The notes under the pieces: generated by a model
The model's database searches: none
Told to the model about the DNA's origin: nothing
The model's input: the letters and a program-made list of their open reading frames with translations, nothing else
Translations under genes and position numbers: made by a program
Part shown: piece by piece, positions 1,697-6,297 of the stretch
Layout of the letters: each line of letters opens with the position of its first letter
Position numbering within the stretch: the first letter of the stretch is position 1
Origin: Thermoanaerobaculia bacterium
Lineage (GTDB): Bacteria; Acidobacteriota; Thermoanaerobaculia; Multivoradales; Multivoraceae
Assembly (NCBI GenBank): GCA_965214805.1
Contig: OZ243982.1
Span: forward strand, 2,915,253-2,979,252
Length of the DNA: 64,000 nucleotides
Reading direction: 5' to 3'

Positions 1697-2017
1697 GTGA
1701 GCGGCGGCTTGCACTCGCCGGAGGCGGTCGCCCGTCGTCGGGCTTCGATTCGTGCCCGGTCTGCCGCATTTCGCAAGGCCGGAGTCCCGACGCAACGCGA
1801 AGCGATCGCCGCCTTCTGTGCGGACTGTCTGTACGACCCCGGCGCTGGCGGCACCTGGCGGGCGCAGATTCAGGCCTGCGAGTCCCGTGGCTGCCCTCTC
1901 TGGCCTTACCGGCCTGGAGCCGATCCAGTCTCCGAGATGCCCGGACACGAACCGGCGACACTGCGGACCGTCCTGCGGCGGAAGCGCACCGATTGGAGCG
2001 GCGAGGATACCGATTAG
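1697..2017 (+). CDS. small Cys4 (zinc-ribbon-like) protein of the kind seen in phages/ICEs
   Basis: 106-aa ORF with [37 protein letters not shown]. This is a CxxC...C-x4-C-PLWPYR motif that I recall from small prophage/ICE proteins. It is divergent from the DUF499 gene. Confidence 0.45.
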
Positions 2018-2289
2018 ATCCGTGGGATCTCGTCGGGACACGGCGAACAGGTTGACGCGCCCAGAGCGCGGACAGACAAGACGGGACGGTGGCAAGCCGC
2101 ACGATTCGCAATGCGCCTTTGCCCTCTGGGGCCGCGGCCGCGTAGAACGCGTTCTCTTCGATGAACTGCCGCCCTGGGCTGCTCCACCGGGTGAACGGCG
2201 GCGGAGACTCGCAGGCGCTGAACCTCGATCCGGACGCCGCCCGGCGTCACCTGGCCCGGAGCGCTCCCCGCACGCCATGTCGACCGCTG

Positions 2290-2558
2290 GACGCAATGCT
2301 CGACCAGTTCCTTGCCCTGCTCTTCACCCAGGAACTCCTCCGACAGGACCGACATGTCCGGTTTGCTCAACCCGGCCGCGGCGAAGAAGTCCACCACGCC
2401 GTCCGACGCCACGGCCCGCGAGACGATCTGCCGCACCGCGTGGTCCAGTTCCCCTCGCCTGACCTCGAACTGAGGCCCGTCCGCTTCGACAGGGCCGCCC
2501 GTACGTGCTGAAACAGCGACACGTCGTCGCGGATGCGAACAGTCTCCGGGTGCGGCAC
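2290..2558 (-). pseudogene. hsdR: type I restriction enzyme HsdR, C-terminal (DUF3387-like) fragment, frameshifted
   Basis: Two minus-strand frames carry [22 protein letters not shown] and [46 protein letters not shown]. These match the conserved HsdR C-terminal block. There is no helicase or nuclease part upstream, and resemblance is lost after ~2290. Confidence 0.6.
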
Positions 2559-2597
2559 GGCCAGAGCGAACGCCTGCGTCAGCGACCTTGCGGAACG

Positions 2598-3788
2598 CTA
2601 CGATCTCGCCTCGTCGGCCCGACCGACGAGCACGGGAGATTCATCCCTCCGTTCGTCGTCACGAACGACGCTCTCCAGGTGCGGATTCAGCAACCTCCAA
2701 CGCTGGCCCGTGCGCTCGAGATCACCTGTCAGCACGACCAGCGCCCGATCCTTGTGAGCCTGAACCGCCTGCTCGTAATCCGCCTGCGCCAGAACCGCGG
2801 CGACCGACTGCTGTTGCCCGTCGATCTCGGTCGCGAGACGAATCGTGCCGTCGTCTTCGGCCTCCGTTCGCTTCAGGAGCCGAACGAAGCCGTGGAGACG
2901 GACTTCGGGCCGGGGCGCGCGCTCGCGGAGTGACCGCGCCGCCTCGCGCAGTAGCGCCGCATCGGCCCGGCCGAAGCGAATTACAGCGCCCGGACTCGCC
3001 GCGGGCCGAGTTCGCGCCCACGAAACGCCAACGTCCAGCGTCGGAAACGGTTCGATGATCCGGACCAGGGCCTCGCAGAGGTTTGCGCTCACGCCGCTGT
3101 TCACCGTCACCTCGAAGGCGCTCTCATCCCCGGCAGCCGCCCGTTCCGTCGCCTGACGCGCCACCGTGACCGCCTCGACCAGCCGTCGCGTCATGCGGCG
3201 TTCGATCGGCGCATTCGGGTCGTCCTCGTCCGGGAACAACGTCGGCATCGGCGGCGGCACGACCGGCGTCAGCAGCGTCACCACGAAGCTGCCGTGGTCC
3301 GTCTGACCGAGCCGCATCCGCTTCAACAGATCCCCCGCCTCCCGGTTCGCCCCGGCTCGGTACACCGGCTTCGGCGCCCGAAGGGAACACGCAGCCGACA
3401 GCACGAGATCGCGGGCGCCGCGCACGAGGTTCACGCCGTCCTCCAACCCGACGCTTCCGTCTTCGCTCTCGGCGACCTTCAGGCGCACGATGTCCCGGTC
3501 CGCCGTTACGAGAGACCGGTAGACGCTCGACTCGTCCTGGCCGGCGACGTCCGCAAAGGCGCGGATCAGTGTCGCCACGACACTTGCGTAGTCGCCGAGG
3601 CGCTCGGTGCGGGGAACGACGATCTCTGGTTGCGACTCGCTGATGTAGATGTCCGAGTATGCGCGGTAGGACTCATGCCGTCGCCAACCGGCACCGCGGG
3701 CGTAGGCCGACAGCGCCGCCGGCGATACCGCCAACAGCGCCCGCCGGTCGCGAATGTTGGAGTTGCCCCGTGTTCGTGGACAGCTCAT
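2598..3788 (-). CDS. hypothetical protein, 396 aa, no family recognised
   Basis: Long ORF with strong GC3 bias and a balanced (non Arg/Pro-rich) composition. It sits between the hsdS' and hsdR' remnants. Its start lies 11 nt from the stop of the IS3 tail, so the true start is uncertain. Confidence 0.6.
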
Positions 3789-3798
3789 GTCTTGGGAA

Positions 3799-3945
3799 TC
3801 AGGCAGCTTCCTGGCAGCTCATCTCGAAGTTGACGGGTGACTGGTGTCCGATCGCGGAGTGCCGAAGATGCGTGTTGTACCAGCCTTCGATGTACCGGAA
3901 GAGCTCCGGCTTCGCTTCGGCATGATTCCGGAACCTGGTCTGACC
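3799..3945 (-). mobile_element. IS3-family transposase C-terminal remnant (last ~46 aa only)
   Basis: The tail of ORF 3799..4380 reads FRNHAEAKPELFRYIEGWYNTHLRHSAIGHQSPVNFE. This is the conserved end of the IS3/DDE integrase core (..IE.FYN..R.HSALGY.SP..FE). No catalytic region or inverted repeats are visible. Confidence 0.6.
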
Positions 3946-4380
3946 GAGCGGCTCGCAAGGCGGTTCCACGACACTGCAGAACCGCATGAAGTCTTCGAGC
4001 GTCAGCCAGGGATCGTGCAGGTTCGGAAAGCAGTCGAGCGGAACCGGAAACGCCCACTTGTCGCCAAATCCCTCGCGGTAGCGATGAAGGTGGGGCGAGC
4101 CGATTTCCTCGCCGTCCGGATTGCGATGCGGTGCACCGCCGAAATCGAGCCGCGCGAGAACTACAACCTGACGGACCCGGTTCTGGTAAGTGCCTTTGGC
4201 AAGGTCGACACGCCCCCGCCACAGGTCGAGAAGAAACGGCTCGCGACCGTCGGTGGAAACCAGCGGAACCGTGATCGCTCCCCCAAGGTCCGGATAGTCC
4301 CACTCGGTAGTGTCGGTCCTGCGTTTCTGCAGAGAAAACAGCAAGTCGGCCTCCGTTTGAGTGAGATTGGCAACAGTCAT
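3946..4380 (-). CDS. hypothetical ~145-aa protein, C-terminus read through into the IS3 remnant
   Basis: N-terminal 145 aa of ORF 3799..4380: MTVANLTQTEADLLFSLQKR...LARLDFGGAPHRNPDGEEIGSPHLHRYREGFGDKWAFP. The PHRNPDG..PHLH.Y.EG.GDKWA motif resembles a small uncharacterised family I cannot name with certainty. Confidence 0.5.
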
Positions 4381-4423
4381 GGGAAGGTAGTGTAACCGCT
4401 TGTGCGGAACTTCACGTCCGCGG

Positions 4424-4762
4424 CTATTCAGGTTGTGCGAAGACGAATGTCGCCGGACACGAGCTTGGGAGAAGCAGATCGCGGGCCTGCGCCAGCTCGC
4501 AGGATTGTCGATTGAGCCTGGACAGAAGTACTGCGCCTTCGGGCACGATCGTCTTGTTGCTCTTCATCGAACTACCAAGGTCCGTGGCCGGCTCGTTTCC
4601 GGCATCGTACGCCGGGAAACTGTAGTGCTCGTAGATGCGCTCGGGCTGGGCGCCAGGTGATAGGATGACACGGTGATGATTCGCCAGATCGCTTGGCGTG
4701 TAGGTCGACCACCCAATGGGGCTCGTCCTGGACGATGCGCAGGTGGTCGGCGCGGATGTCAA
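4424..4762 (-). pseudogene. hsdS: type I R-M specificity subunit HsdS, N-terminal ~85 aa fragment
   Basis: PIGWSTYTPSDLA...RIYEHYSFPAYDAGNEPATDLGSSMKSNKTIVPEGAVLLSRLN matches the first target-recognition domain of HsdS (..HYSIPAFD....G..IKS.K..V....VLLSKLNP). Resemblance ends abruptly after SRLN. Confidence 0.6.
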
Positions 4763-5199
4763 CGGGCGACGTCAGGGGCGTCGTTCCTCCGTTGCAGTTG
4801 ATCCCGCAGGTATCTGGCCTCCCGGAGGAAGCCCGGAACGCCCTCGAAGACCGCCTGTGCCTTGGCTCCGTCGTAGGTGTGACTGATCGTGCCGCGGAGC
4901 TTCCGGTACTCCTTCCAGGCGGATAGCTCGGACTGCACCAGTCCGCGCCGGGAAGCTGCGCGCATGGTGTCGGCGAAGCTCATTTCGTCCAGCAGGGCGG
5001 GATTCTCGGAGACTTGTTCGAGATGGCGCTTGATCGTCTTGAACGACAATTGGTAGGTGAACTTGAAGGCATGGATTGTGGCGGCCCTGAGGTGCAGCTT
5101 GAGAGCGGGGTCGCGCGACGCCAGGTCCGAGCCGTGGTACTCCAGCGCTTCCTCCAACTGCGCGATCGCATCATCGAGCGGCGTCAGGTCAAGTGTCAT
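4759..5199 (-). CDS. HEPN-domain protein, nucleotidyltransferase substrate-binding (HI0074) family
   Basis: 146 aa with the typical HI0074 layout (LDDAIAQLEEALEY...HAFKFTYQLSFKTIKRHLE...) and an Rx4H motif (RGTISH). Confidence 0.8.
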   Translation of the reverse strand: MTLDLTPLDDAIAQLEEALEYHGSDLASRDPALKLHLRAATIHAFKFTYQLSFKTIKRHLEQVSENPALLDEMSFADTMRAASRRGLVQSELSAWKEYRKLRGTISHTYDGAKAQAVFEGVPGFLREARYLRDQLQRRNDAPDVAR

Positions 5200-5689
5200 T
5201 AGCCATGCCCACGCACTGGCAGGCGACGCTGAGCGGCCCCGCGTTCCTCGGCGGTGACGTCGATGGAGTGGCTTGCTCCCATGCCTCCCCGCTCATGGTC
5301 TGGTAGAGGCCGACGGCGTCATCCATGAAGTCCGGCACCAACGCGAGGCAGGCGGCCGCCTTCTGACCTTCAAGGTCGTGCGAGGTGTTGACACGGACGT
5401 TGACGTAGCGAAGCCAGCGTTCCAGCGGCCTGGCGAACAGTTGGTTCTCGTGGGCCAGCCTGAAGACGAGCTTCGGACTGTTCGGCGTCTCGGGAATGCC
5501 AAGATCTTCGTTCAGATACCGCTTGAGCACCTTCCAGAGGCAGTCGTAGCAGGTCCCGAAGCGCCGGATGACGGATTCGGCGATGCCCTCCCGATCGAGA
5601 GCGGAGAGCGCCGGATTGCCCTGCCGGTGGTTCTCGTTCTGCGCCTCGAGACGCTTCAGGGAGGACCGGAAATTGCTGTAGTCAATCAT
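5189..5689 (-). CDS. HEPN-domain protein, HI0074 family (second paralogue)
   Basis: From the internal ATG (5689): MIDYSNFRSSLKRLEAQNENH...RRFGTCYDCLWKVLKRYL...RVNTSH (Rx4H). It overlaps the downstream HEPN gene by 11 nt. The track ORF start at 5800 is probably too far upstream. Confidence 0.7.
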   Translation of the reverse strand: MIDYSNFRSSLKRLEAQNENHRQGNPALSALDREGIAESVIRRFGTCYDCLWKVLKRYLNEDLGIPETPNSPKLVFRLAHENQLFARPLERWLRYVNVRVNTSHDLEGQKAAACLALVPDFMDDAVGLYQTMSGEAWEQATPSTSPPRNAGPLSVACQCVGMANDT

Positions 5690-5861
5690 CAGTCGATCAT
5701 CGTTCCGTTCACGAGACAGGAATCGGCTGGACGTGCGGCCCGGCTCGATCTCCCGGTACTCCAGCAGGGTCAGGAGGCGGACGATATCAAGGATGCGCAC
5801 CGGACGCTCCGCGCCATGGCGATGTTGGACGCGTACAGGATCGTCTTGACTCCCCGGCTCA

Positions 5862-6297
5862 TCAGGGAGGCGACAGCCTGGTTCCGCGGCGCCTGCCGCG
5901 ACCGCTGCGTTCGTCCCTGACGCCGGGCAAGTCGAAGCCCAGCGCCGTCAGGTTCTCGGCGATGGCGGCGTGGAGCCGCGCAGCTTCGGCCTGCTGCGCC
6001 TGCAACTCGGCGACGAGCCGATTCATCTTGTCCTCGAACGGCTCGCCGTCGTCCTCCGGCGGCGGAGCGCCGACGTACCGGCCGGGGGTCAGCACGTGGC
6101 CGTGCCGGCGTATCTCGTCGATGGACGCGCTCTTTCAGAAGCCGGGCTCGTCTTCACAGGCCGCTACACGGTAGCCGCCGAGCCAGGCGTGATAGGCGGC
6201 TGCGATCCGGGCGATGTCCTCTTCCGTCAGTTCACGATGGGTGCGGTCGACCATGCGGCCGAGCTTGCGGACCCCGATCGGCCCGTCACCGGCCATG
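5862..6297 (-). pseudogene. hsdM: type I R-M methyltransferase HsdM, C-terminal ~130 aa fragment with an in-frame TGA
   Basis: Manual translation gives [91 protein letters not shown]. This is the conserved HsdM tail. A TAG lies just upstream of the homologous part, and no catalytic NPPF region is present. Confidence 0.7.

Follow-up and report, generated by a model that had tools for sequence, protein, structure and literature searches.

A predicted PDC-M02B gene without its nuclease partner in a broken type I restriction-modification locus of a Thermoanaerobaculia bacterium

The window analysed here, a stretch of 64,000 nucleotides of contig OZ243982.1 from a Thermoanaerobaculia bacterium (GenBank assembly GCA_965214805.1), carries on its minus strand, at 2598..3788, a 396-codon open reading frame that, judged from its sequence, almost certainly encodes a protein of the PDC-M02B family. 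The gene is an incomplete further member of an already catalogued candidate family and represents no new kind of system; the point specific to the window is that the partner of M02B has been lost, and the gene is probably a recently stranded, still undecayed remnant. Taken together, the identity of M02B, a history of IS3 insertion and deletion, and a mechanism in which a sensor would license a nuclease form a reading that we regard as probable.

Assignment of the open reading frame

The open frame, taken from the ORF listing, lies in a region with a G+C content of 64-70% (68% for the window), where long spurious ORFs are frequent, so that its presence alone is little proof of a gene, and its coding status was settled by homology. 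The PADLOC model of PDC-M02B (PDLC04298) matched residues 10-378 of the frame over profile positions 3-377 of 380 with an E-value of 7e-118, and 38 M02B models of PADLOC-DB matched it in total. More than 1396 homologues were found among the matches listed, with E-values from 1e-237 to 1e-168 and the best at 72-85% identity, and an exhaustive search of cluster representatives returned 3368 clusters at 50% identity with E <= 0.001. The description of the protein as an orphan in the earlier note is therefore overturned. Its remark that no motif could be assigned holds for the sequence databases, as no Pfam, NCBIfam, or PDB sequence match was obtained, including in a profile search of PDB sequences, but fails for PADLOC, where PDC-M02B matches over the full length. 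The source annotation (P0001) gives a shorter protein of 378 aa, starting at a TTG at 3734 that is codon 19 of the frame. Candidates such as SnoaL_3, DrmC, de novo helical bundles, and allophycocyanin appeared as sub-threshold noise only and were discarded, and no match was found when the phage collection was searched with tblastn.

The frequency of long spurious ORFs at 68% GC could also be read as a sign that the high GC content of the genome has produced the frame as a non-coding artefact, or the gene could belong to a housekeeping family, the outcome that would have spoken against the earlier proposal. We consider both practically negligible, since the homologues speak for a real gene, pairwise dN/dS values of 0.16-0.29 and a confident predicted fold argue against a non-coding artefact, and the patchy distribution of the family (8 genomes out of 301 sampled evenly across the window's phylum), in R-M operons and on plasmids, shows no housekeeping pattern.

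In PADLOC, PDC stands for 'phage defence candidate', and 145 such single- or multi-gene candidates were predicted through 'guilt by embedding' in operons of the BREX, DISARM, and type I R-M systems (10.1101/2024.01.29.577857). PDC-M02 is one of the 145, and its anti-phage role has candidate status (Payne et al., bioRxiv 10.1101/2024.01.29.577857). The M02B family is listed as a defence candidate because it is embedded in the gap between hsdS and hsdR. A full-text literature search for the name 'PDC-M02' was empty, the name occurring only via PADLOC. The window gene shares with the catalogued PDC-M02 the full-length M02B match and the hsdS-hsdR niche that led to the listing of the family; in contrast, the window lacks M02A, IS3 sequence stands in place of the native start of M02B, and the surrounding R-M operon is dead, leaving an incomplete system.

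The M02A/M02B module in related loci

Among 80 related loci drawn from species-representative genomes, M02A adjoins M02B upstream in 65. In five loci with close homologues (L001 and L003-L006), a gene of 165-166 aa encoding a DUF4365 protein lies upstream, its stop overlapping the start of the M02B gene; these upstream proteins of relatives match PDC-M02A at an E-value of about 1e-50 and Pfam DUF4365 at 8e-19. M02B is situated between hsdS/M upstream and hsdR downstream in 39 of the 80 loci. In the phylum sample, M02A and M02B are adjacent in 6 of 301 genomes, and on a conjugative Gluconobacter plasmid (G. albidus pGS1191_1, WP_077804025/WP_077804026) the pair occurs without any R-M operon. 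M02B is the larger subunit of a two-gene module with M02A, a DUF4365 (DREN-type PD-(D/E)xK) nuclease, and this module commonly sits between hsdS and hsdR. The earlier proposal of a defence passenger of the hsdS-hsdR slot is borne out by the embedding in 39 loci and by the candidate status in PADLOC, but the partner it named was not the right one. Two proteins in which the A and B parts appear fused (P0259 and P0191) are single cases, perhaps read-through or gene-calling artefacts, and were left out of the evidence.

Regarding other genes of the niche, several relatives bear an AAA_15/AAA_21 ATPase gene after M02B and before hsdR (L071 7192-10066; L001 9273-11059), in some cases with a DUF4276 gene behind it, which indicates that the gap between hsdS and hsdR can stack three or four cassettes. 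M02B is common to many phyla at 50-85% amino-acid identity (L013-L092), namely Acidobacteriota, Rhodothermales, Binatia, Acidimicrobiia, Chloroflexota, Latescibacterota, Proteobacteria, and one cyanobacterium, implying recent horizontal spread. Some of the loci, those of Aphanocapsa feldmannii and of the COS4, RHO1, APA, and SB0662 bins, come from what we take to be sponge-symbiont MAGs. M02B resembles PrrC and RloC in its position as an accessory defence gene within an hsd operon; unlike these, however, it has no ABC-ATPase, P-loop, or anticodon-nuclease domain, and no sequence or fold similarity to them was found with Pfam, NCBIfam, PADLOC, or Foldseek.

The earlier note had offered, as one option, a pairing of the frame with the adjacent ORF at 3946..4380, which encodes a DUF6978 protein, as a two-component defence or abortive-infection system. 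The two ORFs are neighbours on the same strand, 8 nt apart, and both families are catalogued as defence candidates in PADLOC. However, the co-occurrence check went against this pairing, as DUF6978 is found near M02B in only 6 of the 80 loci, on either side, and in every such locus examined it stands beside its own partner M24B (DUF1828/DUF1829). Moreover, what connects the two genes in the window is a 199-bp IS3 scar, which truncates DUF6978 at its end and M02B at its start, and each gene is without its own partner. The two-component reading is accordingly very improbable; the segment 2598..4380 is two unrelated half-cassettes joined by a scar. The DUF6978 gene itself belongs to PDC-M24 (DUF6978 plus DUF1828/DUF1829), which is likewise a cassette of the hsdS-hsdR gap but a system separate from M02, and the window copy of M24A has neither M24B nor its last 8 codons. 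No M24B was found at the window locus. A weak DUF1828-like match was observed elsewhere in the genome, near 2.1355 Mb (26% identity, E 4e-5).

Organization and rearrangement of the locus

All the features described below lie on the minus strand. The statement of the earlier note that the frame lies between destroyed type I R-M genes is confirmed for hsdM and hsdR, while the hsdS remnant is recognised by position only. The hsdM C-terminal remnant (5934..6278) corresponds to residues 377-491 of 493, i.e., 115 codons, and was detected by tblastn (60% identity, E 1e-38) and blastn. It is followed by two overlapping HEPN (NTase_sub_bind) genes at 4759..5800 (Pfam PF08780, E 9.7e-25 and 3.8e-17), which are passengers of the R-M operon. 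These HEPN genes have no nucleotidyltransferase partner at the locus. In relatives, HsdS carries the MNT (Polbeta) domain as an N-terminal fusion (L006 5431-7504; L014 4257-5930), and the partner was therefore probably lost with the hsdS deletion. The putative hsdS remnant (4424..4762) gave no Pfam match and no tblastn match with the HsdS of L001; DNA homology to L006 reaches beyond the HEPN gene into the beginning of the MNT-HsdS gene and ends at 4724 (blastn).

Next in order, the DUF6978 (PDC-M24A) gene occupies 3957..4380 (Pfam PF22398, E 1.4e-39; PADLOC PDC-M24A, E 4.4e-50) and is truncated, retaining codons 1-141 and lacking the last 8. The frame reads through into the following transposase tail, forming a chimeric ORF of 193 aa (3799..4380) in which residues 1-141 belong to DUF6978 and residues 143-186 to the IS3 tail (NCBIfam transpos_IS3, Pfam rve_2), with the stop of the chimera 8 nt ahead of the ATG of the M02B ORF on the same strand. 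The IS3-family remnant itself (3758..3956, 199 bp) is a right end that comprises the last ~44 transposase codons and terminates in ...GGGGCAACTCCA; it was delimited with NCBIfam, Pfam, and the other copies in the genome. The native M02B DNA extends over 2584..3757, from the second base of native codon 4 to 14 nt past the stop, and was 89.3% identical to L006 8011-9184 (blastn). On the other side, the hsdR internal remnant (2310..~2583), with a frameshift near 2452, covers about residues 773-878 of 1048, as determined by tblastn with the HsdR of L001 and by blastn to hsdR of L013, L014, L016, L018, and L071, and a Pfam match to T1RH-like_C was located at 2014..2436. The hsdR junction lies 14 nt past the M02B stop, where homology resumes at 2583, at about hsdR codon 773-820, the first ~770 hsdR codons being gone. 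At 2450, close to the frameshift, contigs of runs X2 and X6 omit one base, a difference that may be a strain polymorphism in the hsdR pseudogene. At the edge of the window, 2-1294 encodes the N-terminal 431 aa of a DUF499/HmaC-type ATPase (PADLOC HmaC, E 7e-73; NCBIfam DUF499_antiphage) that runs off the window and is the start of another defence system.

The boundary between the insertion sequence and M02B was placed from both sides. Five other partial copies of the IS3-family element are present in the genome, all of them ending at the base equivalent to 3758, and the DNA homology to M02B of relatives starts at 3757-3759 (at 3756-3759 in the other relatives; blastn), which puts the IS 10 nt into native M02B, in codon 4. 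Consequently, codons 1-10 of the ORF, including the ATG at 3788-3786, are IS sequence, codons 11-396 are native (ORF listing, PADLOC, and homologue alignment), and M02B is missing its first 10 native nt. The claim that the gene is intact can thus be kept for its open frame, but not for its start. Directly after the IS-derived codons, the conserved N-terminus I-R-D-R-x-A-L-L follows in frame in the homologue alignment. At the site of the ATG, four IS copies have ACG or ACT and none of the five has ATG; the in-frame start at 3788 is therefore specific to this copy. With the native start, the translational coupling with M02A through an overlapping stop and start has also been lost here. The other copies, located at 838174-838807, 3680932-3681570, 2980941-2981086, 3386811-3386919, and 2704575-2704662 (G000:C1), share 80-90% identity with the window copy; as all the detected copies are partial and the genome yielded no full-length one, the family looks extinct there.

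At the other end, IS homology ceases at 3957, which marks this position as a deletion junction. What was removed can be seen from locus L071, whose order is intact: hsdS, M24A (DUF6978), M24B (DUF1828/DUF1829; PADLOC E 1e-104), M02A, M02B, and hsdR. Relative to L071, M24A in the window is short of its last 8 codons, M24B and M02A are missing altogether, and M02B has lost its first 10 nt; the IS, too, is without its left part. A single deletion thus halved both cassettes. A search of the 4.17-Mb genome with Pfam DUF4365 found no M02A at the locus, in the window, or in the rest of the genome; the control genomes also gave no match with this model, and the search was therefore redone by tblastn with four M02A sequences, with the same result. 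The M02A and M02B pair of G196, from the same genus, was rejected as the ancestral state, being only 40% identical and non-syntenic.

Based on these comparisons, the following history of the locus is highly probable. The ancestral order would have been hsdM, the HEPN genes, hsdS, M24A, M24B, M02A, M02B, and hsdR, into which an IS3-family element would have inserted 10 nt into M02B. A deletion would then have stripped the IS of its left part and M24A of its last 8 codons and have eliminated M02A and M24B entirely, and a second deletion, beginning 14 nt past the M02B stop, would have taken about 770 hsdR codons. The ATG inside the IS end would have restored an in-frame start for M02B, leaving the protein without its effector.

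Both junctions are real and not assembly artefacts, as short reads from two samples assembled into contigs that agree with 3036-3842 and 3906-4500 at every base. A contig of run X6, which belongs to another study, has 1 difference over 3957-4500, departs from the window exactly at 3957, and continues as the native end of DUF6978, FIRRGLFT followed by a stop, and then an overlapping ATG, as decoded by hand from the letters of its loose end. This undeleted allele in a near-identical background argues that the deletion is recent.

Predicted structure, mechanism, and fate of the stranded gene

The AF2 model of M02B, built from 110 sequences, had a pLDDT of 84.6 and a pTM of 0.71. The structural check suggested in the earlier note thus gave a confident model, but the PDB offered only weak OB-like and HicA-like matches: with Foldseek, neither of the two M02B models had a global match or any significant hit, the best E-value being 0.02. 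In P0001, residues of about 275-357 are predicted to form a C-terminal barrel composed of three strands, a helix, and two strands, an order that agrees with the one expected of an OB fold. Against the OB folds of SSB, PriB, RPA, and the RecG wedge, this barrel was matched with probabilities of 0.96-1.0 and target TM values of 0.45-0.51, at E-values of only 0.02-0.1. The N-terminal 280 residues, modelled separately (pLDDT 89.9), had no significant structural neighbour in the PDB; the best one was the weak match to HicA chain 6g26_F (E 0.15, target TM 0.74, 61 columns). The HicA/dsRBD-like stretch corresponds to an alpha-beta-beta-beta-alpha module at the extreme N-terminus, and no conserved His as in catalytic HicA was evident in the alignment, the window protein having Tyr where most relatives have His. 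TPR repeats replace the barrel in P0169 and are appended after it in P0123. The models are consistent with an M02B made up of a conserved N-terminal coupling core of ~270 aa and an exchangeable C-terminal receptor. The uncharacterised protein Q6NE06 of the Leptospira phage LE1 is a full-length structural match in BFVD (Foldseek E 7e-21, TM 0.59), although only 16% identical to M02B, which suggests that phage or plasmid-like elements carry the fold as well.

The DREN nuclease of SPARDA is a DUF4365 domain with a PD-(D/E)xK fold; DREN alone is monomeric and inactive, and becomes active when tetramerised on the filament of its partner sensor (PMC12205087). The M02B partner in relatives carries this same nuclease domain, and the oligomerisation of an inactive DREN by a sensor scaffold (PMC12205087) is a plausible working model for M02A and M02B. 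In M02, however, the nuclease is a separate small protein, unfused, whose predicted active site includes the conserved Asp and Lys of a D...QxK motif, and it is absent from the window. Neither an Argonaute (MID-PIWI) nor an APAZ chain was present among the best 50 rows of either PDB fold search, nor was there a Pfam match to these domains, and M02B is no SPARDA member. By analogy with SPARDA, M02B would act in an intact system as the sensor or regulator of the M02A nuclease. Its receptor would be the OB-like barrel in the window copy and TPR repeats in some relatives. Once bound to a nucleic-acid cue during infection, M02B would license the DREN-type nuclease M02A, which is inactive otherwise; this activation would probably proceed through oligomerisation of M02A and lead to the degradation of DNA. 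We put this mechanism forward tentatively, giving it slightly less than an even chance. As M02A is gone, the window M02B cannot license a nuclease, and it is probably functionless for defence here.

The gene nevertheless bears no mark of decay. Of 93 columns conserved at >=95%, the window M02B differs at only 2, both conservatively. Its pairwise dN/dS was 0.22-0.29. On the window branch, 12 non-synonymous and 16 synonymous changes were counted; the corresponding numbers for L006, which keeps M02A, were 17 and 16, and no sign of relaxed selection or decay was seen in the window M02B.

Likewise, the loss of M02A with survival of M02B is not confined to the window. M02A was undetected in 15 of the 80 loci (single-sequence phmmer, E <= 1e-5), some of which keep stubs only, and all but L088 of these 15 retain an open M02B. 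The aligned M02A deletions, observed in L014, L015, L023, L013, L017, L045, L058, L038, and L087, at about 5900-6003, have differing breakpoints, each leaving the start of M02B in place together with 20-75 nt from the end of M02A. The varied breakpoints indicate that M02A loss is recurrent and independent and that it comes before the loss of M02B, an order to be expected of a costly or toxic M02A held in check by M02B.

These patterns could also mean that M02B works alone after the nuclease has been lost, either conferring immunity or anti-addiction against incoming M02A-type nucleases or serving another effector of the island as a nucleic-acid binder. The recurrent losses that leave M02B open with its start spared, the lack of relaxed selection in the window copy, and the window-specific ATG that holds the conserved N-terminal residues in frame all fit such a role. 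However, the other two M02A-less copies in the unbiased phylum sample are pseudogenes, that of G148 having a stop codon and that of G260 being split by ~1.6 kb; the intact allele of the neighbouring junction in run X6 suggests that the deletion is merely recent; the purifying selection seen between relatives may predate their deletions; and a scan for sigma-70-like promoters and for terminators found neither. On balance, stand-alone function is unlikely, and less likely still is the stronger version in which M02B was kept on purpose, for immunity or anti-addiction against DREN-type nucleases or as a free-standing sensor of foreign nucleic acid feeding the effectors of the island. If it were true, the repeated M02A loss and the ATG rescue in the IS end would mean a selectable role for M02B alone.

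With the window M02B read as a probable recent remnant, the annotation of this genome is corrected: what seemed an intact two-gene defence unit is a chimera of half-cassettes, and because these are welded by an IS3 scar, 2598..4380 should be left out of any count of defence systems. At the level of the family, the recurrent loss of M02A while M02B survives narrows the assays of the PDC-M02 candidate, which are narrowed further by a C-terminal receptor that appears exchangeable, being an OB-like barrel or TPR repeats, and by a partner that is a DREN-type nuclease.
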